DNA of 64,000 nt from Spirochaetia bacterium (GTDB taxonomy: Bacteria; Spirochaetota; Spirochaetia; CADAEX01), in the NCBI GenBank assembly GCA_963662265.2, contig CAXXHA010000032.1, positions 96,001-160,000 on the forward strand, in the 5' to 3' direction. The notes beneath the pieces are model-generated. The model did no database searches. It was not told the DNA's origin and was given only the letters and a program-made list of their open reading frames with translations. The translations under genes were made by a program, and so were the position numbers. Below, piece after piece: positions 21,108 to 36,206 of this stretch (positions are counted from its first letter, which is position 1; the number at the start of each line of letters is the position of its first letter).

Positions 21108-21297
21108 TTATTCATAAGTGGATAAAATAATATTGCTGAAGTCCTTTTCCTTCAAAACAGACATATGACTTTTTTATATCAATAAGGCTGCAAAGGCAGT
21201 CTGTGATTTCCTGCACACAGCAGTCTTTTTCCGCTGAAAATTCACTTACCTTTACGGATGTTGTAACAACTTTATCAATAATGTATTATTACATACC

Positions 21298-22122
21298 ATG
21301 AACAGCAAAGATAAACAGATAAAATGTAACTATCACACACATACTTACAGATGCAAGCATGCATCAGGAACTGCAGCAGATTATGCTGACAGCGCAGCTG
21401 AAAAAGGGTTGGATGTACTGGGATTTTCAGACCACAACCCTTTTCCCGATGACAGGTGGAATGATGTCAGGATGGATTTCTGTGAACTGGATGATTACGG
21501 AAAGGAAATTGATTCGCTCAAAAAGCGTAAAGATATTATCATCCTGAAAGGGATGGAATGCGACTGGGTAAGTGAATATAAAAACTACTTTAAAGATGAT
21601 CTTCTTGGAAAGAGAAACTATGATTATCTGGTAGGCGGCATGCACTGGTTCCGGGTTAAGGGAGAATGGGTATTCTGCTATAATGAGAATGCGAAAGGCA
21701 ATCTTAAATATTATGCAGAGCATATGATAGAAATGATGGAATCCGGCATATTTGAATTCATTGCGCACCCGGATCTTTTTTCACGATTTACAGATAAATG
21801 GAGTGATGAAACAGATTTCTATTCACGGGAAATCTGCGCAGCAGCAGAAAGCTGCAATATACCTCTGGAAATAAACGGTTACGGATTCAGAAAACCTAAA
21901 ATGGATTTTGAAGACGGAAGGCGTTTTGCATATCCGCACCCCAGGTTCTGGGAAATTGCATCAGATTATAAAATAAAAGTTCTCTGTAATTCCGATGCTC
22001 ACAGACCGGAAGATGCAGATGCATCCATAGATCTGTGCTGTGAAATTGCGGAAAGGAACTCGCTTGAATATGCAGACCTTTCATACCTGAACAGAGGGAG
22101 AAAAAGAAAAAAATATGCTTGA
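21298..22122 (+). CDS. PHP-family histidinol-phosphatase (HisJ/HisK-like)
   Basis: Motifs NYHTHT, FSDH, AHPDL, LEING and NSDAH. Confidence 0.85.
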   Translation: MNSKDKQIKCNYHTHTYRCKHASGTAADYADSAAEKGLDVLGFSDHNPFPDDRWNDVRMDFCELDDYGKEIDSLKKRKDIIILKGMECDWVSEYKNYFKDDLLGKRNYDYLVGGMHWFRVKGEWVFCYNENAKGNLKYYAEHMIEMMESGIFEFIAHPDLFSRFTDKWSDETDFYSREICAAAESCNIPLEINGYGFRKPKMDFEDGRRFAYPHPRFWEIASDYKIKVLCNSDAHRPEDADASIDLCCEIAERNSLEYADLSYLNRGRKRKKYA

Positions 22123-22630
22123 TATTCTAAGAAAAAGAAAATCTGTCAGAATTTTCGACGGCAGGGCTGTAGAAAACAGTAAAATTGAAAAGCTTTTGGA
22201 AGCTGCCCTGCTCTCCCCTTCATCAAGAAATCATGATCCCTGGGAATTCATTGCTATAACTGACTCCGGCAGGATAAAAAGCCTTTCAGAGTCAAAAAAA
22301 TCAGGATCATCTTTTCTCAAACAAGCGCCGCTTGTTATTGCTGTAATAGCAGATAAAAACAAAAGCGATGTCTGGGTAGAAGACTGTTCCATTGCATCGA
22401 TTATTATCCAGCTTGAAGCGGAAACCCTTGACCTGGGGTCTTGCTGGGTCCAGATAAGAAAAAGGGAAACAGAAGAAGGAGTTCTTTCAGAAGATTTTGT
22501 CAGAAATGTTCTTGCAATTCCGGAAAACTATGCAGTACTTTCTCTCATAGGCCTGGGGTACCCGGAAAAAAGGGAAGAGAGAATACCAAAGTCAACAGAA
22601 GCTGATAAACTGCATTTCAACTCTTTTTAA
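22115..22630 (+). CDS. Nitroreductase family protein
   Basis: Motifs RKSVRIF, SPSSRNHDPWEF and LGSCW. Confidence 0.88.
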   Translation: MLDILRKRKSVRIFDGRAVENSKIEKLLEAALLSPSSRNHDPWEFIAITDSGRIKSLSESKKSGSSFLKQAPLVIAVIADKNKSDVWVEDCSIASIIIQLEAETLDLGSCWVQIRKRETEEGVLSEDFVRNVLAIPENYAVLSLIGLGYPEKREERIPKSTEADKLHFNSF

Positions 22631-22681
22631 TAAACCTTTTTATTTCTGAAGTTTTGGAAAACCAGGGAAAGACTGGAAGAG

Positions 22682-23320
22682 TTATTCAGAGCGGTGCTTC
22701 AGCATTACTGACATTATCGCGTACCCTTCAGAAAGATCTTCTTCAGTAACAATAATATCATCCGGCAGCTGCAGTTTTGCAGGGGAAAAATTCCATATAG
22801 CTTTTATTCCCGAATCAACCATTTTTATCGCGGCTGCCTGTGCATTTGCAGAGGGTACAGATAATATCCCGAGTTCTATATTGTTTTCCCTGATATAGTC
22901 ATAAAGTTCATTCATGTTATGTATTCTTACAGATCGAACTGTTTTCCCGGTTTTTTCGGGATTATTGTCGAATGCCGCAATTATCCTCAGTCCATGCCGT
23001 TTAAATTCATGATATCCAAGCAGCGCCTCTCCAAGGGAACCTGCCCCGACCAGTACAGCCCTGGTATCCCTGTCCCACCCGAGGAATTCTTCGATTGAAG
23101 CGATCAGATCCTTGACCAGGTATCCTCTCTTGGGCCGTCCTACAATATTGGTAAATGTAAGATCTTTTCTTACCTGTATTGAATTTAAATTAAGCCTGAA
23201 ACCTATATCTGTTGCAGATATCCATTCAAAATCCATCTGGTCATACTCATAGAGAAGCCTCAGGTAATATGGGATTCTCCTGATTGTAGGGACCGGGATA
23301 TCAACATTTTTATTAATCAT
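22682..23320 (-). CDS. rex: Redox-sensing transcriptional repressor Rex
   Basis: Motifs PTIRRIPYY, QVRKDL, GRPKRGY, LVGAGSLG and IWNFSP. Confidence 0.93.
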   Translation of the reverse strand: MINKNVDIPVPTIRRIPYYLRLLYEYDQMDFEWISATDIGFRLNLNSIQVRKDLTFTNIVGRPKRGYLVKDLIASIEEFLGWDRDTRAVLVGAGSLGEALLGYHEFKRHGLRIIAAFDNNPEKTGKTVRSVRIHNMNELYDYIRENNIELGILSVPSANAQAAAIKMVDSGIKAIWNFSPAKLQLPDDIIVTEEDLSEGYAIMSVMLKHRSE

Positions 23321-23350
23321 AATCCACCATTATTTGAAATAGTAATATAA

Positions 23351-23381
23351 AACAGCACTTCCGTGACAGGAAATGCTGTTT
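23351..23381 (-). terminator. Hairpin after the OCD-family gene
   Basis: AAACAGCACTTCC-GTGACA-GGAAATGCTGTTT imperfect inverted repeat. Confidence 0.55.
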
Positions 23382-23412
23382 ATCACGATAAATCAACCAT
23401 ATTTACCGCTGA

Positions 23413-24384
23413 CTAGAAATCAATTTCAAATCCTATCTTTTTTTCCCTGCATTTTTCATAAACAGCTTTTGCAGCGTAGAGGTCAAACAATGCCATACCC
23501 ACTGTCTTGAAAAATGTTGTACCGTATTCGCCTCTTTCAGGTTCTCTTCCTGAATTTATGAAATTTCCAAGAGTTTCAATCTGATCCTCTTTTATTGTTC
23601 CCTCTTCAAGGGGAATGAGAATTTCACCTGATTCCTCTTTTGCAAAATCAATATCCACCCAGACCTTATCTGTCAGGCTGAATATTGCATCGGTGAATTC
23701 CCTTACTTCAGGCTGAAAAGATCCCACAGCAACGAAATGCTTATTCTTCAAAAGTTCAGGATCATCAGGAATTACAGGATCCTTTGCAGTTGTTGTAGTA
23801 ATAACTATATCAGATTTTTCAATCAGTTCATTTACTGTTTCTGAATGAAAGACATTAAGCTCGGGAAGAGCCTCTTTGAGCCTGTCTGTAAAAGCCGGGA
23901 GACCTTCAGGAAACATATCATACAAGTACACATTTTTAATATTTCTTGCACTGCATGCAGCAATAACCTGATAAAACCCCTGTACACCACAGCCGATTAT
24001 ACCGAGTGATTCAGAATCCTTTCTTGAATGATGTCTTACACTCACACCCCCGCAGGCACCTGTTCGAAGTGCAGTAATAATTTTCCCATCCATTATTGCG
24101 AGGATTTCTCCCGTATCCGGATCATTAAGCATTATTCCGCCGTTGATTGTAGGCTTGCTGTATTTTTTATTCCCCGGAAACAGGGTAAGTATTTTTGTAG
24201 CTATATCGCCCTTTGCCACACATGGCATCAGTAGCAGTGAATTGCTATCCTTGCAGTCAATTGTGACACGTTCAGGCATTATATAATCTTTTGATTCATA
24301 TATTCTGAGAGCCTCTTCCACACTGTCCATGATTTCATTCATTGTTACAGCTTCCAAAATATTTTTCTGGTTCAGTATTATCAT
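23413..24384 (-). CDS. Ornithine cyclodeaminase/mu-crystallin family; probable delta1-pyrroline-2-carboxylate reductase
   Basis: Motifs ITALRTGA, IIGCGVQG, AVGSF and FKTVGMALFDL. The specific function is inferred from the nearby Cys/Thr racemase-family dehydratase. Confidence 0.8.
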   Translation of the reverse strand: MIILNQKNILEAVTMNEIMDSVEEALRIYESKDYIMPERVTIDCKDSNSLLLMPCVAKGDIATKILTLFPGNKKYSKPTINGGIMLNDPDTGEILAIMDGKIITALRTGACGGVSVRHHSRKDSESLGIIGCGVQGFYQVIAACSARNIKNVYLYDMFPEGLPAFTDRLKEALPELNVFHSETVNELIEKSDIVITTTTAKDPVIPDDPELLKNKHFVAVGSFQPEVREFTDAIFSLTDKVWVDIDFAKEESGEILIPLEEGTIKEDQIETLGNFINSGREPERGEYGTTFFKTVGMALFDLYAAKAVYEKCREKKIGFEIDF

Positions 24385-24404
24385 TATCCTTTCCTTAATT
24401 ATCC

Positions 24405-25967
24405 TTATTTATCCTTTAATTCCGCCTCTATTTTTTTCGAGGTCTTTGTAATTGACAATCCGCCTAGTGCTGTGCAGCGCAGTTCGCATGGAATACTCTT
24501 TCCCACTTTATCCATGGTATCAATCACCTCATCAACACTGACTACATGATCAAATCCTGCAATTGCCATATTTACAGAAGATAAAGCATTTGAAGCAGCC
24601 ATTACATTCTTACCCAGGCATGGAACTTCAACCCTGTTGGCAACAGGATCACAGATCATTCCGAGAATATTCTGAAGCGCCATTGAAACAGCTGCCAATG
24701 ACTCATTCAGTGGCAGATCGGCAATTGCAGAAAGAGCAGCAGCAGCCATCCCGGATCCTGCTCCGCATTCAGCCTGGCACCCCCCCACTTCTGCTGAAAA
24801 AGTTGCATGCTGTGCTATGAAAACGCCTATCATTCCGGCAGCAAGCAGGGCTTTAGCCATTACATCTTCCGAAAGGTTCATTTCATCAGCCGCACCTATT
24901 ACAGCTCCGGGGAGGCCTCCGCAGGATCCGGCTGTGGGAGCAGCCACAATTACACCCATGGAACTTTTAATCTCCATCAGTGCTGTTGTATAAAGTATTA
25001 TCCTGTTTAAAAGCCCGCAGTTAAGAAGTTCATCACTGTCCATTTTCGCCTTGAAACTGCCTGACTGATAACCGAGTATTCTGTCGCGGTATTCTGTTCC
25101 GGCAATCCCCGCTCTAATGGATTTCCTTAAAACAGCAACAATATCTTTCATCTTCACGAATACTTCATCTTTTGAAATATTTCCCCTTGCAGATTCATAT
25201 TCGAGTGCAAGTTCCCAGAGTTTAATATTTCTGCTGCTGTTGTATTTCTTCATTTCATCAGCAGTAATAAACGGAACAGATATATTTTTTCTTGAAAGAA
25301 CAGGCAGGACAGGTTTCAGCTCCCGGATTTGTCTGATTTCATATTTTTCAGCAATTTCCTGTTTTATACTGTCCGGCAGAAAAGATGATGATTTAATTTC
25401 AAAAAGACAGCCATTCCTGCTTTCAGTCTTAACAATAAATTCATGATCTGTTTGTCTTTCAAGATAATCATCTATTTCACTGTCATATTTATCTGTAAAA
25501 ACAAGTGTCTCAAAATAGTCTCCGCAGACAGATATTTCAAAACCGTCTATATCAACTATCTCAATCATACCGCCGCCTGTTGAGACAGCAGTTATTCTAT
25601 GTGATTCAGTCTTGTTGCTGAGTATTATCAGGTATGTATTCGGATGATCATAATTGAGTTTTTCAATTTGGATATCAATATCAAGCCCGGCTTCTTCAGC
25701 TCCCTTTAAATAGTCTACAAGTCTTTCATCAGAAGGCTCCCATCCCAGGAACCCTCCGAAAAGCCCCATATCAGAGCCCTGTGTATCATGAGTTGTGGCA
25801 AGAGAACCATCAGGATCGAATTTTATAGTTATATCTGATATTTCACCACCCATAAGGTCTCTTGCCAGAAGGCCGATTCTTACAGAAGCGGCACAGTGGG
25901 AACTCGAAGGCCCCCTCATAACAGGTCCGATCACATCGTTGAATATACTTGGATACATTTTTACCAC
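24405..25967 (-). CDS. Fe-S L-serine dehydratase-like enzyme, beta-alpha fusion
   Basis: N-terminal GPVMRGPSSSH and STGGG; C-terminal APTAGSCG, AEVGGCQAE and CDPVANRVEVPC (three Fe-S cysteines). Confidence 0.85.
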   Translation of the reverse strand: MVKMYPSIFNDVIGPVMRGPSSSHCAASVRIGLLARDLMGGEISDITIKFDPDGSLATTHDTQGSDMGLFGGFLGWEPSDERLVDYLKGAEEAGLDIDIQIEKLNYDHPNTYLIILSNKTESHRITAVSTGGGMIEIVDIDGFEISVCGDYFETLVFTDKYDSEIDDYLERQTDHEFIVKTESRNGCLFEIKSSSFLPDSIKQEIAEKYEIRQIRELKPVLPVLSRKNISVPFITADEMKKYNSSRNIKLWELALEYESARGNISKDEVFVKMKDIVAVLRKSIRAGIAGTEYRDRILGYQSGSFKAKMDSDELLNCGLLNRIILYTTALMEIKSSMGVIVAAPTAGSCGGLPGAVIGAADEMNLSEDVMAKALLAAGMIGVFIAQHATFSAEVGGCQAECGAGSGMAAAALSAIADLPLNESLAAVSMALQNILGMICDPVANRVEVPCLGKNVMAASNALSSVNMAIAGFDHVVSVDEVIDTMDKVGKSIPCELRCTALGGLSITKTSKKIEAELKDK

Positions 25968-25973
25968 CTGTTA

Positions 25974-26780
25974 TCAGCCGAGTTTTGAGGCTTTTTCTCT
26001 GCAGGCCCTTACAGCATCTATGACAGAATATCTGAAACTGTTTTTTTCAAGAACCTGAACTGCCTCTATAGTTGTACCGCCCGGTGAACAGACCATGTCT
26101 TTAAGTTCGCCCGGATGCTTTCCTGTTTCCCTTACAACTCTGGCTGAACCGAGTACAGCCTGAGATGCAAGCTTATATGCAGTTGCCCTTGGAAGTCCCT
26201 CAAGGACTGCCCCGTCTGCGAGAGCTTCTATAAACATATAGACATATGCCGGAGATGAGCCTGAAACAGCAGTACAGACATCAATATACTTCTCATCAAT
26301 TACTTCTGTTAAACCGAAGCTCTGGAATATTTTTTCGACATATCCCAGTTCTTCATCTGTTACATTCCTGCCCCTGCAGAGAACGCTCATCCCTTCTCCG
26401 ACAAGAGCGGGAGTGTTAGGCATTGTCCTGATGACTTTAACAGGGAATGAGAAGTATTTCTCAACCGATTCAACAGTTATACCTGCTGCAATTGTAACAA
26501 TGACTGTTTTCTCAGACACCTTTTTATTGATTTCATCAAGAACATACTTGTATATATCCGGCTTTACAGCAAGAATTATTATTTCTGAATTCTCAGAAAG
26601 CCTGCAGTTATCAGCAGTCACATCAATTCCCGGAAAATCCTTTTCCATTAAAGAAAGAGATTCCGGGTTTTTATCAGAAACAATTATTTCGCCGGCACAG
26701 GCAAAACCGGAGGATATAATTCCCCCGATAATTGCCCGGCCCATGTTTCCGGTACCAATTATTCCTATTTTATATTTCAT
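25974..26780 (-). CDS. proC: Pyrroline-5-carboxylate reductase
   Basis: Motifs IGTGNMG, LAVKP, RTMPNTP, SGSSPAY and VCSPGGTT. Confidence 0.95.
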   Translation of the reverse strand: MKYKIGIIGTGNMGRAIIGGIISSGFACAGEIIVSDKNPESLSLMEKDFPGIDVTADNCRLSENSEIIILAVKPDIYKYVLDEINKKVSEKTVIVTIAAGITVESVEKYFSFPVKVIRTMPNTPALVGEGMSVLCRGRNVTDEELGYVEKIFQSFGLTEVIDEKYIDVCTAVSGSSPAYVYMFIEALADGAVLEGLPRATAYKLASQAVLGSARVVRETGKHPGELKDMVCSPGGTTIEAVQVLEKNSFRYSVIDAVRACREKASKLG

Positions 26781-26802
26781 TTAAACACCTTTATCTTAAG
26801 TT

Positions 26803-29166
26803 TCAGCAGCCGAAATTCTGTTCAGTACGGTTGATAATCTCATCCTGAAGAGGTTTTTCAAGATTATTGAAATAATCGCTGTATCCTGCAACTCGGACAA
26901 TAAGATCTGAATACTGTTCAGGATTCTCCTGTGCCTTGAGCAGAATTTTCTTGTCAACAACATTGAACTGAATATGATGACCATCAAGTTTGAAATAAGA
27001 TCTTATCAGGGCAACTAGTTTGTCAATATTACTGTCCCCCTCAAGAACAGACGGAGAGAATTTCTGGTTGAGCAGGGTTCCTCCTGTTCTCAAATGGTCC
27101 ATTTTGGCAGCAGATTTCACTACAGCTGTAGGCCCGTTTCTGTCAGCATCTGTAGCAGGAGAAATACCTTCAGAAAGAGGCATACCGCTCTTCCTTCCGT
27201 CAGGTGTTGCACCGATTACTGAACCGAAATAAACATGGCATGTTGTAGGAAGCATGTTGATTCTGTACTGTCCACCATTCATTGTAGGTCTTCCGTCAAC
27301 AGAATCAAAATATGAATCAAAAATCATCTTCATCAGGTCATCAGCATAATCATCATCATTTCCATATTTGGGAGTCTTGTTCTTGAAGAGATTATGGATG
27401 GAAGGATCCTGAAAATCGTTATCAAGCGCTTCAAGAAGCTCTTTCATGGAAAGATTTTTTTCATCAAAGACATGTTTTTTTATGGAAGAAAAACTGTCAG
27501 TAATAGATCCTATACCTACTCCCTGAATATATCTCGTGTTATACCTGGCCCCGCCTGAATTATAATCTTTTCCCTCTTTAATACAGTCATCTATAATTAC
27601 AGAGAGAAAAGGTACCGGCATATAGTTGGAATAGATTTTCTCAATTGTATTATTGCCGTGAATCTTGATATTTATGAAATAATCCAGCTGCTTCTTGAAA
27701 GCATTGAAGAAATCATCAAATGACTGAAAATCTTCTGCTTTTCCTGTTTCAAGACCGAGTTTTTTACCAGTCATTTTATCAAGACCGTTGTAAAGAGTAA
27801 TTTCCATTATCTTGGTCAGGTTCATGTAGCCTGTAAGGATATATGATTCTTTACCGAATGCGCCTGTTTCAACACATCCGCTTGTTCCGCCGTCACGGGC
27901 ATCTTCAATTTTCTTTCCGGCTCTAACCATTTCAGAGACAACAGCATCAGCATTAAAAACTGAAGGCTGACCCCATCCCTCACGGATAACTTCGCATGCC
28001 CTTTTTACAAACTTGTTTGGATTCTTCTTGCTTACCTGTACATTTGAACTGGGCTGAAGAAGATGCATATCGCTTATAACATCAAGAACAAGGTAGGTAA
28101 CATCATTTACACCATCTTCCCCTTCTGCAGTAAGCCCGCCTGAATTGATATTGGCAAAATCTGTATATGTACCACTTTCCTTCAGAGTCACACCTACTTT
28201 TGGAGGTGCAGGCTGATTATTGAACTTGACCCAGAGGCATTCAAGGATTTCCCTTGCCTGATCCCTGTCGAGAGTTCCCTCTTCTGTTTCCTTTCTGTAA
28301 AAAGGATAGAGGTGCTGATCAAGCCTTCCGGGATTAAAGGAGTCCCAGTTATTCATTTCAGAAACAACAGCTATATGAACAAACCAGTACATCTGGACAG
28401 CCTGCTCAAATGTTTCAGGCGGATAAGCTGGTACTCTTCGGCAGTTGAGAGCTATTTTTTCAAGCTCACTCTTTCTGACCGGATCTTTTTCAGAAGCTGC
28501 CTTTTCCGCAGCATAATCAGCATAACGCCCGGCATACTTCATGATTGCATCACAGGTAACAGCCATTGCATCAAGCTGTTCCTTTTTTTCAAATGCTTTG
28601 GGATCATTCAGAAAATCAAGTTCTCCCGCAGCTTTTTCTATATCTTTTTTGAAATCAAGAAAACCTCTTTTATATATCTTACCATCAGCAACAGTATGGC
28701 CGGGGCCCCTCTGCTCCATGAATTCTGTGAAAATTCCTGCTGAATAACATTCTTTCCATTCATCAGTCATGGAAGAGAGTATTTTACCTCTCAAAGCCCT
28801 GTTTTCCCAGAAAGGAATTATTTCATTTTTCTGATACTCAAAAATTTCATCAGATACTTTATAGGAAATTTTCTTCCTTTTATTCATTATCTCGAAATCA
28901 TCCAGAGTATGACAGCATAATTCAGGATATGTGGAAGTGGCAGCAGGCCTCTCACCTCTTTCGCCGACTATAATTTCTCCATCATTAATACAGAGCTCCT
29001 TGTTTTCCATAATATTTTTAAAAACAAGAGCCCGCAGCATTGGGATTGATACTGTTCCTTCATATTTTTTATAAACTTCAGTAACAAGTTTAGCTCTCTC
29101 TATAGAAATACTCGGGACAGCGTTTAGACTCTGTTCTCTGAGCTTTATTACCCTTTCATTCATCAT
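26803..29166 (-). CDS. hypD: Glycyl radical enzyme trans-4-hydroxy-L-proline dehydratase
   Basis: HypD-type motifs QRGPGHTV, WDSFNPGRLD, ESGTYTDFAN, GGTSGCVETG, MLPTTCH and VRVAGYS; proC lies immediately downstream. Confidence 0.92.
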   Translation of the reverse strand: MMNERVIKLREQSLNAVPSISIERAKLVTEVYKKYEGTVSIPMLRALVFKNIMENKELCINDGEIIVGERGERPAATSTYPELCCHTLDDFEIMNKRKKISYKVSDEIFEYQKNEIIPFWENRALRGKILSSMTDEWKECYSAGIFTEFMEQRGPGHTVADGKIYKRGFLDFKKDIEKAAGELDFLNDPKAFEKKEQLDAMAVTCDAIMKYAGRYADYAAEKAASEKDPVRKSELEKIALNCRRVPAYPPETFEQAVQMYWFVHIAVVSEMNNWDSFNPGRLDQHLYPFYRKETEEGTLDRDQAREILECLWVKFNNQPAPPKVGVTLKESGTYTDFANINSGGLTAEGEDGVNDVTYLVLDVISDMHLLQPSSNVQVSKKNPNKFVKRACEVIREGWGQPSVFNADAVVSEMVRAGKKIEDARDGGTSGCVETGAFGKESYILTGYMNLTKIMEITLYNGLDKMTGKKLGLETGKAEDFQSFDDFFNAFKKQLDYFINIKIHGNNTIEKIYSNYMPVPFLSVIIDDCIKEGKDYNSGGARYNTRYIQGVGIGSITDSFSSIKKHVFDEKNLSMKELLEALDNDFQDPSIHNLFKNKTPKYGNDDDYADDLMKMIFDSYFDSVDGRPTMNGGQYRINMLPTTCHVYFGSVIGATPDGRKSGMPLSEGISPATDADRNGPTAVVKSAAKMDHLRTGGTLLNQKFSPSVLEGDSNIDKLVALIRSYFKLDGHHIQFNVVDKKILLKAQENPEQYSDLIVRVAGYSDYFNNLEKPLQDEIINRTEQNFGC

Positions 29167-30068
29167 CAGCCTCCAATTTCAGCTTTTATACCTGCAGTAT
29201 CAAAAATATTTTTTATACGTTCCATACGTTTATCTGATGGCACGGTATTTTCAGACATCTGATACTTTTTTTCAATTCGGTTGTATTTTGACTCGGCAAA
29301 ATTATTATAAGGCAGCAGACTCACTTTAATGACTTTTACAGTTTTCAGGATTTCCACTGTTCTGTTCCAGTTTTCATCATATTCATTGAAACCGGGAATA
29401 ACAGGTATTCTTATAAAAATATCCTTCCCCATTTCGGAAAGCATTTTAAGATTCCTTATTATTACTTCATTTGAAACACCTGTAAAATCTCTGTGTATTT
29501 CATTATCAACTGCTTTAAGATCATATAAAAACAGATCAATATATTCTGCCAGATCTTTTATTATATTTTCAGAAACATAACCTGAAGTATCAACAGCTGT
29601 ATGTATTCCCTTTTCCCTGCATTTCACAAGTAATTCTTTTAGAAAATCATGCTGCATAAAGCATTCCCCGCCGGAAAAGGTTACCCCGCCGTTTGATTCT
29701 TCATAGAAAATACTGTCCTTGAGAATCTCTTTCATGACATCAGTCACAGACATTTCTTCCCCGCAGATTTCTCTGGCGCCATGAGGACAGAATAAAGCAC
29801 ATTTTCCGCATTTCAGACACTTGTTTCTGTCTGTTACAGGATATCCGTTTTCTATTGTGATTGCATTATTTACGCATTTTGACATGCAGACTCCGCATCC
29901 TGTACATCTGTTTTTCAGAAAAATCAAATCAGGCATAAGACTCTGGCTTTCTGGATTATGGCACCATAGACAGGACAAAGGACAGCCGTTAAAAAAAACT
30001 GTTGTTCTTATGCCAGGTCCATCATGAACTGAATATTTCTGAATATTCATAACAATACCTTTCTGCAT
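29166..30068 (-). CDS. Glycyl-radical enzyme activase with ferredoxin insert (HypD activase)
   Basis: HDGPGIRT, GCPLSCLWCHNPES, two CxxCxxCxxxC clusters, GGVTFSGGE. Confidence 0.93.
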   Translation of the reverse strand: MQKGIVMNIQKYSVHDGPGIRTTVFFNGCPLSCLWCHNPESQSLMPDLIFLKNRCTGCGVCMSKCVNNAITIENGYPVTDRNKCLKCGKCALFCPHGAREICGEEMSVTDVMKEILKDSIFYEESNGGVTFSGGECFMQHDFLKELLVKCREKGIHTAVDTSGYVSENIIKDLAEYIDLFLYDLKAVDNEIHRDFTGVSNEVIIRNLKMLSEMGKDIFIRIPVIPGFNEYDENWNRTVEILKTVKVIKVSLLPYNNFAESKYNRIEKKYQMSENTVPSDKRMERIKNIFDTAGIKAEIGG

Positions 30069-30101
30069 AATCTCAACTCCTTCAGTTATTATAAACTATA
30101 T

Positions 30102-30126
30102 ATTACTGCTGCACAGCAGCAGTAAT
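30102..30126. other. Perfect intergenic hairpin inside the hyp operon
   Basis: ATTACTGCTGC-ACA-GCAGCAGTAAT. Confidence 0.6.
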
Positions 30127-30136
30127 TTGATTTTAT

Positions 30137-31327
30137 CTAGAATATCATCATGAGAATATTTGCAATAATACCGGCAGTTACACCTGCAAGCAGCTGGATG
30201 TTTATTGCAAGACCGACAAATTTTTCACTTTTGAAGCTTTCCATCATTGCAACATGTGTGCAGAGGAATCCTGCAAAAGTAATACCAATCGCTGTGTATA
30301 CTGCAACATCTCTTGAAACAATAATTCCACTCTTTATAAACTCGGGGATAAGACCGAGAGAAGCACCTACACTTCCGAGAGCTGTTACAGGAAAAGCAAT
30401 AGCTTCAGGATTTGAAAAACCGAAAAGCGGTTTTAAAACAGGAGCTGCAAGCTTGCCGAGCCATGGAATAAGACCGATTCCCTCGTAGGGAAGACCCTGA
30501 TATCCAAGTGAAGGATCTGCAACACCTTTAGTGAGAAGCATTATGAATGTACAGATTACAAGAACAGCAGCAATCAGTGATATACCGAGTTCAACACCAT
30601 ACTGTCCACCTTTAACCCCTGCATCAAGAAATCTCATTGCAAAACTCTTTTTCTGCTCATTGGCAGCCTGATTTTCCTCAGCTTTTTTTTCATTTTCAAT
30701 ATCAGCTTCATCCATGAAATCTTCAGGATTTACAAAATCAGTTCCAAGAGCCTTCTTTGTTTTAATCATCATTACACGGATACCTACAGCGCATCCAAGG
30801 AATGCAGCAATATTACCTACAACAGCCTCTTTAACAAATCCCTGGCCGATAACAAATGTTGTAACAATAAGTCCCATACCAGCGGTTGTTCCGAGAATTG
30901 TAAGACACGGTACCTGATGTTTTCTGAAATAAGATGAGAATTTTCTGTCTTTCATAAGAGGACAGATAGCAGGATTATCAGAAATATAGCTTACAGTAGC
31001 ACCGAGAAAAGACGCCCCGGGTAAACCGTAAAGCGGTTTCATCATGGGTGAAAAAATCTTATCAAGTATTTTAAGAAATTCGAACTCACTGGCAACTCTT
31101 CCCATAGCCCCTGCAATTACAGCAACAGCAAGAATATAAAAAGATGTGCTCATAAGAAGATCATATGCTGTTTTCATCATGGTTGAAAACAAGTTTGCCA
31201 CACCCATTTTTGTTACAAGAGCAGCAAAAAAAGCAGCAACAATGACTGTAAAAATCACAAGACTTTTCATGTCATTAATTTTATTCCGGGAATCATTTTT
31301 AATCCCTGCAACATTTCCAGTTGTCAT
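30137..31327 (-). CDS. Polytopic membrane protein with two Gate (nucleoside-recognition/SpmAB-like) repeats; candidate transporter
   Basis: Repeated motifs FSPMMKPLYGLPG and AAPVLKPLFGFSNP, about 9-10 TM helices. Start at ATG 31327 after AAGGAG. Confidence 0.7.
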   Translation of the reverse strand: MTTGNVAGIKNDSRNKINDMKSLVIFTVIVAAFFAALVTKMGVANLFSTMMKTAYDLLMSTSFYILAVAVIAGAMGRVASEFEFLKILDKIFSPMMKPLYGLPGASFLGATVSYISDNPAICPLMKDRKFSSYFRKHQVPCLTILGTTAGMGLIVTTFVIGQGFVKEAVVGNIAAFLGCAVGIRVMMIKTKKALGTDFVNPEDFMDEADIENEKKAEENQAANEQKKSFAMRFLDAGVKGGQYGVELGISLIAAVLVICTFIMLLTKGVADPSLGYQGLPYEGIGLIPWLGKLAAPVLKPLFGFSNPEAIAFPVTALGSVGASLGLIPEFIKSGIIVSRDVAVYTAIGITFAGFLCTHVAMMESFKSEKFVGLAINIQLLAGVTAGIIANILMMIF

Positions 31328-31366
31328 AAAAAACTCCTTCAATTTAGATCCAGGTATACCTTTAGA

Positions 31367-31450
31367 TATTTTTTTATTTATTTAAAGCACTTTTTTTATA
31401 TATTTAGATCAATTTTTTGTCAATATATTTAAATCAAAATTTTGTTCTAT
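31367..31450 (-). promoter_or_regulatory. Promoter/operator of the hypD operon
   Basis: Minus-strand TTGACA (31423-31418), 17 bp, TATAAA (31400-31395). Near-duplicate of 33462-33520. Confidence 0.75.
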
Positions 31451-31472
31451 TTCGTTATTTTTTTACGCAAAA

Positions 31473-31502
31473 AAAAGGAAAGCCTGATAATGCTTTCCTT
31501 TT
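31473..31502 (-). terminator. Rho-independent terminator of the regulator gene
   Basis: AAAAGGAAAGC-loop-GCTTTCCTTTT with flanking A/T tracts. Confidence 0.6.
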
Positions 31503-31533
31503 CATTTTCACGATTCAATGACTGAATAAGGTA

Positions 31534-32211
31534 TTATTCTTTTGTATATCTTGATTTAACTTCACGAAGATAGGAATATATTGTGTATTTGGTATTTCCC
31601 AGGATATCTGCAAGATATTCTACAGATCCCTTGAGCTGGAAATAACCTTTTTTATCAAGACTGCTGATTATATACATTTTTTCATTTTTCTTTGTTTTAT
31701 CCAGAGGCTTACCGATTTTCTTCTTTACCTCTTCCAGATATTTATTGATCAGATCATCTGCAAAACCTTCGGTTTCTGTAGCAGAGGCATTGTTTTTTGA
31801 ATAAAAATCATATGAACGGGTCTGAATCATGTCTTTAATAAAGCTTTCTGCAATTTCAGCTCGTGTCATATCATAGTTAATACATAAAAAACCTACAATT
31901 TTTCCTTTATCATCTTTTATACATACAGCACTTGCATTGAGTCTTTTACCGTTTTTAGCAATTTCAAAATAATTCGGAACATAGTCAGCATCCTGCAGCG
32001 TTGCTGTTTCAAGAATATAATTACCAAGATCATTCATCGGTTCACCGACTTTTCTTCCTGTTACATGTGGGTTTGCAATTTCCACAAGTGAACACTGGGG
32101 ATTTGATACATCATGAAGCGCTACCTCATAATCAGGCCCGAGTACAACACCAAGTCCTTTGACAATAGGAACAAAAGGTTTCAGAAAAGGATTTATTATT
32201 TTGTCATCCAT
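31534..32211 (-). CDS. PAS_6 + HTH transcriptional regulator (YheO/DauR family)
   Basis: Motifs YEVALHD, HVTGRKVG, GFLCINYD, LDKKGYFQLKGSV and KYTIYSYL. Likely start MDDKII at 32211. Confidence 0.88.
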   Translation of the reverse strand: MDDKIINPFLKPFVPIVKGLGVVLGPDYEVALHDVSNPQCSLVEIANPHVTGRKVGEPMNDLGNYILETATLQDADYVPNYFEIAKNGKRLNASAVCIKDDKGKIVGFLCINYDMTRAEIAESFIKDMIQTRSYDFYSKNNASATETEGFADDLINKYLEEVKKKIGKPLDKTKKNEKMYIISSLDKKGYFQLKGSVEYLADILGNTKYTIYSYLREVKSRYTKE

Positions 32212-32294
32212 AATTACTATTCCCCTGAATAAATATCTTAACTGGGGTAATTGTCCCCTTTCTTGCAAAAACAGTCAATATTTTGATGAAAAAA

Positions 32295-32323
32295 ACTGCA
32301 GAAACACCACGTGTTTCTGCAGT
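32295..32323 (-). terminator. Terminator hairpin after the proline-racemase-family gene
   Basis: ACTGCAGAAACAC-CAC-GTGTTTCTGCAGT, with a minus-strand T tract. Confidence 0.7.
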
Positions 32324-32373
32324 AAACGGATTGAGTAGAAGTATTATATTATTTATTAAAACAATTTTTATAA

Positions 32374-33438
32374 TTATCTTAAAATAAATCCATCTTTGAG
32401 ATTATCTTCAGGATCAAAGAAAAATTCACATTTTCCCGACAAATTCGCAGTTCCTGAAACCTGCGGAACAACAGCCTTATGCGGACCATATTCAGTAACT
32501 TCAGCTACTTTTACCGACATTGTTGTACCGATAATTGATTCAATGACAATTTCTTCATCAAACTCAAGTTCTCCCTTTGCATAATGGAGAGCTGCTCTTG
32601 CACTTACACCGGAACCGGTAGATGATCTGTCAACCTCTCCTTCTGCAAAAACACATACGTTTCTGCTGTGATGACTGCTGTCATGCGGTTTCCCTGTGAT
32701 AATTGTTCCGTACAGAAAGGACAGATCATCAAAGAAAGGATGCTTGATTTCATAATTATCCATTACAGCGTATTTAATCCTTCTTCCATAATCAATAAGC
32801 TTGTCATGATCCTTTTTATCAAGTGAAAGACCCAGATCTTCAGCTTCGACAAAAGCATAAAAAGCTCCGCCGAATGAAATATCAAATTTCACTTCACCAA
32901 TTCCCGGTACATTGACAGTTTTATCTCTCATGTACAGGAAAGAAGGAACATTTAAAAAAGATACTTTTTCAACAATCCCTTTGTCATTTCTGAATGCTTT
33001 TGATCTGATAAGTCCGGGAGGAGCATCAATCACAAGATCCGGATTCTGCTCATCCTTCTTAATCATTCCTGTATCAAGCACAAGCTTTGTAAGTGCAATT
33101 ATCGCATGTCCGCACATGGTGGAATATCCTTCATTATGAAGAAAAAATGTTCCGAAATCAGCGTTTTCACTTATAGGTTCTGTGATAACAGCGCCATACA
33201 TATCTGCATGACCTCTCGGCTCCCACATTGTTCTGGTTCTTATATAATCAAGGTTATCACGGAAATACCTTCTTTTTTCAAGGATATCCTTACCTTTGAT
33301 CTCCGGGAGTCCTCCTGTATATACCCTGAGCGGTTCGCCCCCTGTATGAGCATCCAGTACAGTAATTTTTTCCCATGAATCCGGTGCTTCCCATGAAGCA
33401 AGCGTATCAAGTTTTGCAGAAAAATCTTCACCCATCAT
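32374..33438 (-). CDS. Proline racemase superfamily, Cys/Thr type: probable trans-3-hydroxy-L-proline dehydratase
   Basis: Motifs DAHTGGEP, EPRGHADMYG and MCGH. The second catalytic motif is DRSSTGSG, with Thr in place of the racemase Cys. Confidence 0.85.
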   Translation of the reverse strand: MMGEDFSAKLDTLASWEAPDSWEKITVLDAHTGGEPLRVYTGGLPEIKGKDILEKRRYFRDNLDYIRTRTMWEPRGHADMYGAVITEPISENADFGTFFLHNEGYSTMCGHAIIALTKLVLDTGMIKKDEQNPDLVIDAPPGLIRSKAFRNDKGIVEKVSFLNVPSFLYMRDKTVNVPGIGEVKFDISFGGAFYAFVEAEDLGLSLDKKDHDKLIDYGRRIKYAVMDNYEIKHPFFDDLSFLYGTIITGKPHDSSHHSRNVCVFAEGEVDRSSTGSGVSARAALHYAKGELEFDEEIVIESIIGTTMSVKVAEVTEYGPHKAVVPQVSGTANLSGKCEFFFDPEDNLKDGFILR

Positions 33439-33461
33439 AAGTCTCCTTTCGTATATATAAT

Positions 33462-33520
33462 TATTTTTTTATTTATTTAAGACAATTTTTTTATATATTA
33501 CGAACAATTTATTGTCAATA
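33462..33520 (-). promoter_or_regulatory. Promoter/operator of the 3-hydroxyproline dehydratase gene
   Basis: Minus-strand TTGACA (33518-33513), 17 bp, TATAAA (33495-33490). 52/59 identical to 31367-31425 by manual count. Confidence 0.75.
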
Positions 33521-33663
33521 CAAAAACAGAAAGTACTTTAATTACTAGTCAATATTTTGTTTATTTTTCGCAATTTTTATCAAATTTTTGATATTACAGG
33601 GTTTAATCGTTATTTATTTACTGATATAATCGCGGTGTTCAACTTTCAAAGGAGTAAATAGAT

Positions 33664-35103
33664 ATGGACACTACAGCTACTATAATTACTTTTTTTCTAT
33701 ATTTTGTATTCATGCTTTTCATCGGAATCTATTTCTATAAGAGAAACAGGAATATTGAAGACTATCTTCTGGGAGGGAGATCTCTAGGTAAATGGGTAAC
33801 TGCAATTTCTGCGCAGGCAAGCGATATGAGCGGGTGGCTCCTGATGGGACTTCCGGGCGCAGTTTACCTTTTCGGTTTAAACCAGTGCTGGATTGCTGTG
33901 GGACTTACTATAGGAACATTCCTGAACTGGCATCTTATATCTGAAAAACTAAGAGTTGCAACAGAAAAAACAGAATCAATGACTCTTTCAGGTTTTTTTG
34001 CAAAAAAATACAATGACAAATCAGGTCTTCTCCAGTCAGTTTCTGCTGTAATAATTTTAATCTTCTTTACAATTTATACTTCATCCGGCCTTGTAGGAGC
34101 GGGAAAACTTTTTGAATCAATGTTTGGAATTGATTACAGAAATGCTGTACTTATCGGGTCAGCCGCAATTGTACTCTACACTCTTCTCGGAGGATTCATG
34201 GCAGTCTGCTGGACAGACCTTTTCCAGGGGATGCTTATGTTTGCCGCAATAATCCTGGTTCCGCTCTTTGCAGTGATTAAAGCACCTGAAATGAATGTGC
34301 AGATGACTATCAACAGCAATTATCTTGATATTTTAAATACAGGAGGCGGATCTTTCTCACTGCTTGCACTGTTATCATCAATGGCCTGGGGACTCGGGTA
34401 TTTCGGCCAGCCCCATATATTAACAAGATTTATGAGCGTAAAATCTGTTTCCGAACTTAAGCAATCTAAGATTATTGCAATGGTATGGGTAATAATCTCT
34501 CTTGCAGGGGCAGTTATTATCGGACTCGTTGCAAAACCTTATTTTTCTGCACTTCCTGAAGGAAATCATGAAAAAGTCTTTATTTTCCTTATACAGAAGC
34601 TTTTCAATCCATGGATAAGCGGAATACTGCTTGCAGCAATCCTTGCCGCGATAATGTCGACAATAGATTCACAGCTTCTGGTTTCATCATCAACACTGAC
34701 AGAAGATTTCTACAAATTCTTCATCAGAAAAAATTCTTCCGAAAAAGAACTGATGTGGGTGGGAAGAGGATGTGTCCTTTTAATTGCAGTTATTGCAGTA
34801 TTAATGGCAATGGTTCCGGGAAACACAGTCCTTTCGCTTGTATCATACGCATGGGGGGGACTAGGCGCTTCTTTCGGACCGCTTGTAATTACAGCTCTCT
34901 ATTCCAGAAACATAAGCTGGAAATCAGCGTTTGCAGGTATGACAACAGGAGCTCTTACAGTCATAATATGGAAAAATTTCCCTCTCCTGCCTGTTTATGA
35001 AATAATCCCCGGTTTTATATTTAACTTTGCTGCAATTTATATAGTACAGAAACTTCTTGCTGTCAGGGAAATTGAGGCCAGGGAGTCTGTAACAATAAAA
35101 TAA
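33664..35103 (+). CDS. putP: Sodium/proline symporter
   Basis: Motifs SAQASDMSGWLLMGLPG, WGLGYFGQPHIL and AAIMSTIDSQLL. Confidence 0.93.
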   Translation: MDTTATIITFFLYFVFMLFIGIYFYKRNRNIEDYLLGGRSLGKWVTAISAQASDMSGWLLMGLPGAVYLFGLNQCWIAVGLTIGTFLNWHLISEKLRVATEKTESMTLSGFFAKKYNDKSGLLQSVSAVIILIFFTIYTSSGLVGAGKLFESMFGIDYRNAVLIGSAAIVLYTLLGGFMAVCWTDLFQGMLMFAAIILVPLFAVIKAPEMNVQMTINSNYLDILNTGGGSFSLLALLSSMAWGLGYFGQPHILTRFMSVKSVSELKQSKIIAMVWVIISLAGAVIIGLVAKPYFSALPEGNHEKVFIFLIQKLFNPWISGILLAAILAAIMSTIDSQLLVSSSTLTEDFYKFFIRKNSSEKELMWVGRGCVLLIAVIAVLMAMVPGNTVLSLVSYAWGGLGASFGPLVITALYSRNISWKSAFAGMTTGALTVIIWKNFPLLPVYEIIPGFIFNFAAIYIVQKLLAVREIEARESVTIK

Positions 35104-35127
35104 TTCCTGCTGTTACACTGATTATAA

Positions 35128-35166
35128 CAAGGGAATCTCTAAAACAATATTTCACGAGGTTCCCAT
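35128..35166. repeat. Short palindromic element related to the AAGGGAATCT...AGATTCCCTT family
   Basis: AAGGGAATCTCTAAAA...GAGGTTCCC; similar ends occur near 45015, near 50860 and at 52698-52740. Confidence 0.45.
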
Positions 35167-35169
35167 AAC

Positions 35170-35206
35170 AAAATGCAAAATCCGCTTATGCGGGTTTTTG
35201 CATTTT
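35170..35206 (+). terminator. Terminator of putP
   Basis: AAAATGCAAAATCCGC-TTAT-GCGGGTTTTTGCATTTT. Confidence 0.75.
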
Positions 35207-35494
35207 ATTTCTGACAGCAAGCGTTATCCCCGGATAGGGAACAATGCAGAAAAAAATGTTTTTTTTACTTTTCCCATATTTCTGCCTGAAACAGATGCGT
35301 TACAGCAGTCAGTGAAACCTGACCCTGGAAAAATTATTTCAGACAGGAATATTTTCAACGAAGAATAAATCTTTTTCAGCGGCAGCTTAAGCATTATTTT
35401 TCATATATCATGAGCAGGTAAAACACAAAAATATTTTATCAGCTCATAACGAAGTCTTTACATAAATTATCACTTTCATTACTATGGTTTTAAT

Positions 35495-35929
35495 ATGATT
35501 AATTACGAAATCCGCAACTGCACAACTGAAGATCTACATTCTGTGCATGAAATGATCAGTGCACTTGAAGGGGAAAATCCCGGAATAGAAGAATTCACAG
35601 AAGTTTTCTCCACAAATCTAAATGATAAAAATATTTTTTATATAGTCGCTGAATCAAATGACAAGGTAATTGCCTTTGCAAGCATCCATATACAGATGAT
35701 ACTTCATCATACAGGAAAAGTAGCAGAACTGATGGAAATGTTTGTGGATCCTGATTTCAGGAATAACGGAATCGGTGAGGCACTGTTCTGGAACCTGAAA
35801 GATACTGCCGAAGCATGCGGATGCCGGTATTTTGAAATTTCATCAAACATAGTAAGGGATAAGACAAAGACTTTTTTTGAAAATCTTGGTGTTCAGCTTA
35901 CACATTACAAATTCACAGAACGCCTGTAA
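35495..35929 (+). CDS. GNAT N-acetyltransferase (PhnO-like)
   Basis: Motifs LHHTGKVAELMEMFVDPDFRNNGIG and THYKF. Confidence 0.85.
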   Translation: MINYEIRNCTTEDLHSVHEMISALEGENPGIEEFTEVFSTNLNDKNIFYIVAESNDKVIAFASIHIQMILHHTGKVAELMEMFVDPDFRNNGIGEALFWNLKDTAEACGCRYFEISSNIVRDKTKTFFENLGVQLTHYKFTERL

Positions 35930-36206
35930 TCCGGCATAAGAGAACAGGTTTTTTCTAAATATTATATCTCTTTATGATTATTGACTGATCCATTTCAGAA
36001 ACTTCAGTTACAGTAAATTCACCCCCTCAAACTATCCTTCCCCGGCTACCAGGCACAATAATCCGGATATTTATACATCAGTCAAAGCTTTTATCCGTAT
36101 TATTTTTGTATTTTTTCCTGTTTCTCCTTATTTTATTCACCTTTTACAGGAAATCATATAAATAAAATTATTTACTTATGAACATGCAGGATTTATAATA
36201 TTAATT

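Follow-up and report, generated by a model that had tools for sequence, protein, structure and literature searches.

Gene content and integrity of the locus

The window analyzed here is a 64,000-nt stretch of contig CAXXHA010000032.1 (assembly GCA_963662265.2) from a Spirochaetia bacterium. Its region of about 22.6–35.5 kb carries ten genes, among them a set predicted to convert trans-4-hydroxy-L-proline (trans-4-Hyp) as well as trans-3-hydroxy-L-proline (trans-3-Hyp) to L-proline. The genes were defined from the listing of open reading frames together with Pfam and NCBIfam profile scans, and all coordinates are positions within the window (Table 1). All of the genes are located on the minus strand, with the exception of putP, which is divergent and lies on the plus strand. 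In the order of minus-strand transcription, they encode a proline-racemase-family protein, a YheO-type regulator, a membrane protein, a radical SAM activase, the glycyl-radical enzyme HypD, ProC, an Fe-S serine-dehydratase-like (SDH-like) protein, a member of the ornithine cyclodeaminase (OCD)/mu-crystallin family and the redox-sensing repressor Rex. The gaps between the activase, hypD, proC, SDH-like and OCD genes are −1, 22, 6 and 20 nt (activase and hypD overlap by 1 nt), so the five genes from the activase to ocd form an operon-like run.

A preceding sequence-only reading had described hypD, the activase gene, proC and the OCD gene as one run, accompanied by a racemase-family gene, a regulator and putP. 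All of the genes it named are present at 23413–35103. The run exists too, but it includes an SDH-like gene between proC and ocd that had been overlooked, and the gene of the CD0519/CD1768-family membrane protein was likewise missing from the list.

The layout is reproduced in a 15,004-nt contig from a different sample and study, which covers positions 21226–36312 and both borders of the region with ~99% identity; the gene order is therefore not an assembly chimera. This contig differs from the window by one small replaced segment at 35144–35260, in the spacer between putP and a GNAT gene. In two other runs (X4 and X6), a 115-nt segment at this place is swapped for the same 32 nt. The replacement is strain variation at the right border of the island.

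Table 1. Genes and sequence features of the hydroxyproline locus (positions within the window).
Feature	Position	Strand	Evidence and remarks
rex (redox-sensing repressor)	22682..23320	-	NF003994 258.6 bits vs. cut-off 130; probably own transcription unit
Terminator-like hairpin, ocd/rex interval	23351..23380	-	12-bp stem, then U-rich tail; z = -4.8 vs. shuffles
OCD/mu-crystallin family gene (ocd), predicted TlLhpI-type pyrroline-2-carboxylate (ketimine) reductase	23413..24384	-	PF02423, E 2.7e-56
Fused beta-alpha Fe-S serine-dehydratase-like (SDH-like) gene, 520 aa	24405..25967	-	PF03313, E 2.4e-65
proC, pyrroline-5-carboxylate reductase	25974..26780	-	TIGR00112 279.6 bits vs. cut-off 196.75
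hypD, glycyl-radical trans-4-hydroxy-L-proline dehydratase	26803..29166	-	NF043068 1450.9 bits vs. cut-off 1100
HypD activating enzyme (radical SAM)	29166..30068	-	TIGR02494 366.1 vs. 174.35; NF043069 423.2 vs. 425
11-bp perfect hairpin, membrane gene/activase interval	30102..30126	-	Weak U-tail; z = -4.2
CD0519/CD1768-family membrane protein, candidate hydroxyproline importer	30137..31342	-	NF049989 441.1 bits vs. cut-off 300
59-nt promoter/leader element, copy 1	31367..31425	-	Ends 25 nt upstream of membrane-gene start codon
YheO-type regulator (PAS_6 + HTH_22), candidate locus regulator	31534..32268	-	PF08348 E 2.5e-35; PF13309 E 8.6e-20
Intrinsic terminator 3' of 3-Hyp dehydratase gene	32295..32323	-	13-bp stem + U7 run; z = -6.3
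Proline-racemase-family gene, predicted trans-3-Hyp dehydratase (Cys/Thr type)	32374..33438	-	PF05544, E 8.9e-103
59-nt promoter/leader element, copy 2	33462..33520	-	Ends 24 nt upstream of 3-Hyp dehydratase start codon
putP, Na+/proline symporter	33664..35103	+	TIGR02121 625.3 bits vs. cut-off 515.5; divergent from 3-Hyp dehydratase gene

Predicted routes from hydroxyproline to proline

HypD and ProC both exceed their equivalog cut-offs. For HypD, the generic PFL2-3 subfamily model of NCBIfam comes next with 658.9 bits, followed by that of sulfopropanediol dehydratase with 589.6 bits. The protein scores 1174.7 bits against Clostridioides difficile HypD (6vxc) and only 434.5 bits against the hydroxyproline C-N lyase HplG (7vua). 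The catalytic motifs of 6vxc are kept, with Cys431 in the GCVETG loop (Cys-x-Glu) and Gly761 in the RVAGYS glycyl radical motif. The activase falls just under the HypD-specific model NF043069 and above the general model TIGR02494, and proC is a single-copy gene in the host genome (tblastn). HypD, with its radical SAM neighbor as the activator, would dehydrate trans-4-Hyp to pyrroline-5-carboxylate (P5C), which ProC would reduce to L-proline with NAD(P)H. The strong orthology of both enzymes thus points to the route from trans-4-Hyp to proline that the sequence-only reading had proposed.

Cys109 and Thr274 occupy the catalytic positions of the proline-racemase-family protein. These residues are aligned with the Cys/Thr pairs of 6r76 and 7qpo, and the same columns hold Cys/Cys in the racemase 7pb3. 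According to the three-type classification of this family described in PMC4141209, the Cys/Thr pair defines trans-3-Hyp dehydratases, as opposed to the Cys/Cys pair of racemases and epimerases. The best solved relative is 6r76 (E 2.9e-134), described in PMC9309405 as the trans-3-Hyp (T3LHyp) dehydratase of Thermococcus litoralis. Human L3HYPDH follows (7qpo, 7e-86), with the proline racemases behind. The host genome contains only one racemase-family gene. This cofactor-free Cys/Thr enzyme would dehydrate trans-3-Hyp to pyrroline-2-carboxylate (Pyr2C), and the OCD-family reductase, encoded by the last gene of the hypD operon, would reduce Pyr2C to proline.

The best solved relative of the OCD homologue is the T. 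litoralis Pyr2C reductase TlLhpI (6t3e, E 1.1e-53), with the A. fulgidus alanine dehydrogenase behind (1omo, 1.1e-41). Three diagnostic residues are described for this family (Watanabe et al. 2014, PMC4141209): E56/D228/K232 in true OCD (P. putida numbering), where they are needed for cyclization, R52/D219/K223 in the A. fulgidus alanine dehydrogenase (AfAlaDH) and L52/V224/A228 in TlLhpI. Pairwise alignments to 6t3e and 1omo place L51/F223/V227 of the window protein in these columns; the identical columns give L/V/A in 6t3e and R52/D219/K223 in 1omo, which validates the mapping. Two other identities were considered and rejected. A true ornithine cyclodeaminase is not indicated, with Leu/Phe/Val in the E/D/K columns and a score of 97.5 against the cut-off of 350 for NF005762. 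An alanine dehydrogenase of the AfAlaDH type is not indicated either, with Leu/Phe/Val in the R/D/K columns and 175.2 against 409.15 for TIGR02371. Thus, L51/F223/V227 match neither of the two activities that the sequence-only reading had regarded as incompatible with its proposal. The Cys/Thr pair, the T. litoralis relatives and the diagnostic residues of the OCD homologue agree with one another, and these family signatures argue for the proposed 3-Hyp route through a Cys/Thr dehydratase and a TlLhpI-like reductase. The genomic association is of the same kind: the Cys/Thr enzyme is encoded in the same island, and homologues of the OCD gene elsewhere adjoin genes for AcnX (locus L034) or Cys/Thr dehydratases (L108 and L140). 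The nearest relatives of the OCD homologue (51–60% identity) carry Anaerolineae names wherever they are named, as do many relatives of the SDH-like protein.

The CD0519/CD1768-family membrane protein probably imports hydroxyproline, and PutP would import proline. Two more genomes from the phylum, G369 (L127 7124–12484) and G274 (L128 6829–12079), encode homologues of the former (42–43% identical) directly upstream of activase–hypD–proC; the family is a recurrent HypD partner in the phylum. Full-text literature searches found no function for CD0519/CD1768, and the only mention of CD1768, in PMC3510511, is as a target of CcpA.

Neither ProB/ProA nor proline dehydrogenase nor D-proline reductase was detected, and the pathway therefore seems to end with proline. 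No proB or proA gene scored above the cut-off in the host or in two genomes of the same genus, G001 and G002 (positive controls detected in 14/14 genomes), while all three have proC; a glutamate route to proline seems to be missing from the genus. No proline dehydrogenase (Pro_dh) was found in the host (positive controls detected in 8/14 genomes). The host genome is 90.6% complete, so these absences are provisional. The island would supply proline from imported proline, 4-Hyp and 3-Hyp to a likely proline auxotroph, and each hydroxyproline turned over would consume one NAD(P)H, making the pathway an electron sink as well. A Stickland-type fermentation, in which hydroxyproline passes through proline to 5-aminovalerate as in Clostridia, is highly improbable. 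HypD–proC loci have such a role in C. difficile (Huang et al. 2018, PMC6219649). In the host genome, however, no proline racemase was found, the sole proline-racemase-family gene being a dehydratase of the Cys/Thr type, and there was no match to PF09338 or TIGR04480 (PrdA), in searches whose controls were detected in 0/14 genomes.

A side observation concerns G369, where a proB match above the cut-off (G369:C1:40922–41716) lies ~4.4 kb downstream of hypD and contains two in-frame stops (one TGA and one TAA). It may be a decaying proB beside a hydroxyproline-to-proline operon.

Control elements, accessory status and recurrence

The 59-nt element is the best direct repeat of the 14-kb region, and its two copies agree at 52/59 positions (88%). 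On the transcribed strand, each copy consists of TTGACA, a 17-nt spacer and TATAAA, followed by a conserved leader. In the 3.77-Mb genome, the copies match only each other (blastn-short E 1.5e-10), and the next best match is 21 nt long. The repeat is evidence, at the level of sequence, that control is shared or that a promoter was recently duplicated. Behind these elements, the 3-Hyp dehydratase gene and the run headed by the membrane-protein gene would form separate units that are probably switched together; the candidate regulator is the YheO-type protein, whose gene lies between them. The co-regulated module postulated earlier is thus supported by the shared element, a matter of sequence, but judging by the predicted terminators and hairpins the locus comprises several (at least four) transcription units. 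The hairpin at 30102–30126 is possibly a partial terminator, a processing site or an operator. An Rfam scan of 20–38 kb (E ≤ 0.1) gave no matches. A 13-nt word with a −35-like TTGAC is common to 32269–32290, upstream of the regulator start, and 33546–33560, in the distal part of the spacer between the dehydratase gene and putP. The TTG start of the regulator may be mis-set.

The functional link to rex suggested by the sequence-only reading found no support. A search for Rex operators (consensus from the literature, ≤3 mismatches; the spirochaete Rex motif may differ) gave 11 matches in the window against eight expected, none of them intergenic within the locus, and the hairpin at 23351–23380 parts ocd from rex. 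Since no Rex-type operator was found, the adjacency has no demonstrated meaning. In addition, rex and proC are adjacent on the same strand in G001, which has no hypD (L112 9608–11133; G001:C1, ~2.18 Mb), so this pairing predates the island.

The region at ~22.6–35.5 kb is an acquired accessory island. HypD was not found in either same-genus genome (G001 and G002), where the PHP/nitroreductase genes adjoin the GNAT/acetyl-CoA synthetase genes, with one 289-aa gene between them in G001. Window positions ~22631–35494 therefore represent extra DNA in the host. The G001 counterparts of proC and rex are 58% and 70% identical (aa) to the island copies, as against 71–91% for the flanking genes. The upstream synteny block of the host that corresponds to the rex–proC region of G001 stops at a contig edge (C12). 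The GC-content of the island (0.35–0.42) shows no contrast with the rest of the window. A tRNA scan of the window found no genes, and hence no tRNA-linked integration site. In a sample of 401 genomes of the phylum, HypD occurs in six genomes and the racemase-family gene in six, and both are found together only in the host.

Just right of the island, at 36207–38471, lies a gene similar to ADP-forming acetyl-CoA synthetase (ATP-grasp, CoA-binding and ligase domains, below the cut-offs). This gene keeps its place across the genus (its G001 counterpart is 88% identical, aa) and thus lies outside the island. The host genome has three FlaA genes, which fits a spirochaete.

The sequence-only reading had proposed a search of hypD neighborhoods, which was made in 80 metagenomic loci with HypD. 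These differ greatly in length (2.4–22 kb), and a match had to cover 50% or more of the query with E ≤ 1e-15. HypD itself was matched in 77 loci at 50% cover, the activase in 58, ProC in 23, the OCD homologue in three, the racemase-family protein in two and the SDH-like protein in one. The membrane protein, the regulator, Rex and PutP were matched in none of the 80. One locus (L108, 13–10026) combines HypD with a Cys/Thr dehydratase (56% identity) and OCD: it contains a GntR gene, an unassigned 419-aa gene, the dehydratase and OCD genes, those for a peptide transporter of the POT family and for an Xaa-Pro-type peptidase (M24), and the activase and HypD genes. This looks like a complete set for the conversion of collagen peptides to proline. 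Another locus (L034, 1707–7890) combines OCD with AcnX and encodes a PrdR-like sigma-54 regulator, the activase, HypD, OCD (43% identity) and a two-subunit AcnX. The best model of this AcnX is cis-3-Hyp dehydratase, below the cut-off; according to PMC8184944, only type IIa AcnX is a known cis-3-hydroxy-L-proline (C3LHyp) dehydratase. proC was not found within the 10-kb contig of L034. In a further locus, L056, HypD is accompanied by genes for an OCD-like protein, an FAD oxidase and a fused SDH-like protein (35% identity). Of the genomes from the phylum, G213 has OCD (31%), the activase and hypD at a contig end, and G204 (L140) has a Cys/Thr dehydratase gene (53%) divergent from OCD, without HypD. 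HypD is thus joined to a 3-Hyp module only uncommonly, though not in this island alone.

The closest known counterpart of the 4-Hyp part is the HypD/HypD-AE/P5C reductase locus of C. difficile (6VXC/6VXE), with which the window shares an equivalog-level HypD, the activase and the adjacent proC. Here, however, the membrane-protein gene precedes these genes, the operon continues into the SDH-like and OCD genes, the promoter element is common with the 3-Hyp dehydratase gene, and prd genes were not found. Treponema species with hypD–proC were reported to clade with Firmicutes, and horizontal transfer was suggested (Huang et al. 2018, PMC6219649); in the text of that paper the terms "3-hydroxy" and "cyclodeaminase" do not occur.

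For the 3-Hyp part, LhpH and LhpI of T. litoralis (PMC4141209; 6R76/6R77 and 6T3E) are the best solved relatives of both window enzymes; the Cys/Thr pair and a hydrophobic triad of the L/V/A type are kept, and that host is also an anaerobe. Unlike the archaeal cluster, the window represents a bacterial (spirochaete) island, with an identified HypD plus proC where T. litoralis has "PFL". The cluster of T. litoralis also contains a Cys/Cys racemase and L-proline dehydrogenases, neither of which was found here. The "PFL" genes flanking archaeal LhpI were remarked upon and left unexplained before the discovery of HypD (Watanabe et al. 2014, PMC4141209). By analogy with the window, they may encode HypD. 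The aerobic bacterial clusters for T3LHyp and C3LHyp (Azospirillum LhpH/LhpI; AcnX; Zhao et al. 2014, PMC4113996) follow the same logic, from a dehydratase through an OCD-family Pyr2C reductase to proline, but their neighbors are genes of the oxidative route for 4-Hyp (epimerase, D-Hyp dehydrogenase and deaminase) and not the glycyl-radical HypD. Full-text literature searches found no paper linking the glycyl-radical HypD route to the 3-Hyp route.

Taken together, the data suggest, with a probability of roughly 0.7, that the accessory island funnels trans-4-Hyp and trans-3-Hyp to L-proline anaerobically from units with look-alike promoters and a probable common switch. The arrangement is new; the enzymes themselves are known. 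Both 4-Hyp and 3-Hyp are constituents of collagen. Work on the anaerobic conversion of 4-Hyp through HypD has centered on gut Clostridia, and that on the degradation of 3-Hyp on aerobes and one archaeon. If this interpretation is true, anaerobes that are host-associated or live in sediment can recover all imino acids of collagen as proline, here from a locus behind duplicated promoter elements in an organism seemingly unable to make proline from glutamate. It would also provide leads to a candidate hydroxyproline importer family (CD0519/CD1768) and to a candidate hydroxyproline-responsive regulator of the YheO type with its likely operator.

Several observations weigh against this interpretation. 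The racemase-family protein is below the equivalog cut-offs (NF045511, 367.7 vs. 540; NF047722, 193.9 vs. 550), as it is for all racemase and epimerase models of NCBIfam. The OCD homologue is under every NCBIfam equivalog cut-off, including those for reductases of Pyr2C and piperideine-2-carboxylate (NF004793, 187.7/322; NF005603, 156.4/266; NF045512, 120.1/400), and enzymes of the TlLhpI type also reduce 2-oxo acids, as described in PMC4141209. Its gene is separated by ~8 kb from that of the 3-Hyp dehydratase, but the SDH-like gene, possibly its real partner, is just 20 nt away. The combination is rare, given the three loci with OCD and the two with a racemase-family gene among the 80. Predicted terminators divide the locus, and the copies of the 59-nt element might stem from a promoter duplicated recently, with no regulator in common. 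Finally, the PrdA searches had no working control, and the absences are provisional because the host genome is incomplete.

Some of these points would also fit a chance mosaic of a hypD module, a 3-Hyp dehydratase gene, an SDH-like/OCD pair, putP and rex, regulated independently and sharing no regulon. The 3-Hyp dehydratase gene and ocd are each followed by a terminator-like hairpin, a Rex box was not found, and the nearest relatives differ between the parts. The modules are also separate elsewhere in the phylum, with only the membrane protein, activase, hypD and proC in G369 and G274 and only the dehydratase and OCD in G204. Nevertheless, such a mosaic is improbable, as the 59-nt element is limited to both units and stands in the same register to their start codons, all enzymatic outputs converge on proline, and L108 and L034 independently combine the same functions.

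The SDH-like gene and its partners

The SDH-like protein combines an SDH_alpha domain with a beta-like N-terminal domain bearing a GPSSSH motif. Its Cys397, Cys439 and Cys450 align with conserved Cys-containing motifs of the L. pneumophila type 2 L-serine dehydratase (4rqo), with which it shares the SDH_alpha domain as well; these motifs presumably hold the three cluster ligands of 4rqo. Fused, ACT-containing types of Fe-S L-serine dehydratases are said to have been described by Xu and Grant in 2013. The window gene differs from the Fe-S L-serine dehydratases in three respects. It is below all of the L-serine dehydratase cut-offs (sda_alpha, 211.9/243.2; sda_mono, 149.1/345.1; sda_beta, 120.4/161.2); it is a second copy, with the canonical two-subunit sdaAA/AB also present in the host genome; and it is located in a hydroxyproline operon, adjoining an imine reductase gene. 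The fused gene occurs in 1/401 of the sampled phylum genomes, that of the host only. It is foreign to the phylum sample and yet stands 20 nt from ocd. Its relatives at 55–65% identity belong to Chloroflexota, Bacteroidota, Acidobacteriota, Asgard archaea and others.

Because the SDH-like gene is directly beside ocd, its product is a second possible source of substrate for the reductase. The OCD homologue might therefore work mainly with the SDH-like enzyme, converting serine or threonine via a 2-imino/2-oxo acid to alanine or 2-aminobutyrate. There would then be no dedicated module for two hydroxyprolines, and the link of 3-Hyp through OCD would be secondary or absent. Apart from the 20-nt gap, the same order of an SDH-like gene and then OCD is found in two of the three Victivallales genomes with an SDH-like gene (L006 and L016). 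In G616, a genome of the class Anaerolineae, SDH-like (71% over the part seen), M42 peptidase, OCD (51%) and Xaa-Pro aminopeptidase genes occur together, and L056 has its SDH-like gene with HypD, the OCD-like gene and the FAD oxidase. The alanine dehydrogenase activity of TlLhpI is reported as measurable and dependent on Leu52, a residue kept in the window protein, and Ser/Thr dehydratase genes beside LhpI were remarked upon by Watanabe et al. 2014 (PMC4141209). On the other hand, according to the same paper, Pyr2C is the preferred substrate of TlLhpI, and the enzyme has an unphysiological Km for ammonium. A Cys/Thr dehydratase gene with a matching promoter is present in the same island, and OCD orthologues pair with AcnX (L034) or Cys/Thr dehydratases (L108 and L140), with no SDH-like gene seen. 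Furthermore, four of the five genomes with a 62–63% identical SDH-like gene contain no OCD homologue (E ≤ 1e-30). We consider this pairing unlikely as the main role of the reductase and favor the conversion of both hydroxyprolines to proline.

Three roles are possible for the SDH-like protein: it may supply pyruvate, it may dehydrate Ser/Thr to a product that OCD reduces, or it may be a new dehydratase of the 3-Hyp type. A plain L-serine dehydratase role for the family is fully possible, given that ocd is adjacent to the SDH-like gene in only 2/22 genome loci with that gene, that carriers without OCD exist, and that the fused gene is the sole SDH_alpha gene in 3/5 genomes. Most of the examined contexts of the gene are unspecific. 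We only tentatively suggest, as a doubtful proposal, that the SDH-like enzyme is a third dehydratase in a set of dehydratase/imine reductase pairs and not a housekeeping L-serine dehydratase. It is possibly a new, non-homologous dehydratase of 3-Hyp or another beta-hydroxy amino acid feeding Pyr2C to OCD, and might then be a functional analogue of AcnX, which has the same place in L034. In a second version, the enzyme could pass its imine product directly to OCD, so that serine would be converted to alanine; the beta-hydroxyaspartate dehydratase/iminosuccinate reductase pair is an analogue. If either version were true, the island would be a general module for the reductive dehydroxylation of hydroxy-amino acids.

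Members of the SDH-like family also stand beside genes of proline-specific peptidases in three lineages (L009 7626–13516; L020 10001–14096; L143 1–3675). The SDH-like gene is flanked by those for DPP-IV and PepX in six loci of Flavobacteriaceae and by that for DPP-IV in a genome of Calditrichia; the third lineage is that of the Anaerolineae genome, with M42 peptidase and Xaa-Pro aminopeptidase genes as well as OCD. The repeated placement by OCD (in the host, two Victivallales genomes and G616) and by proline peptidases hints at a role linked to proline or hydroxyproline, and this Fe-S dehydratase family, found by imine reductases and proline peptidases, is a lead to an activity that may so far be unassigned.

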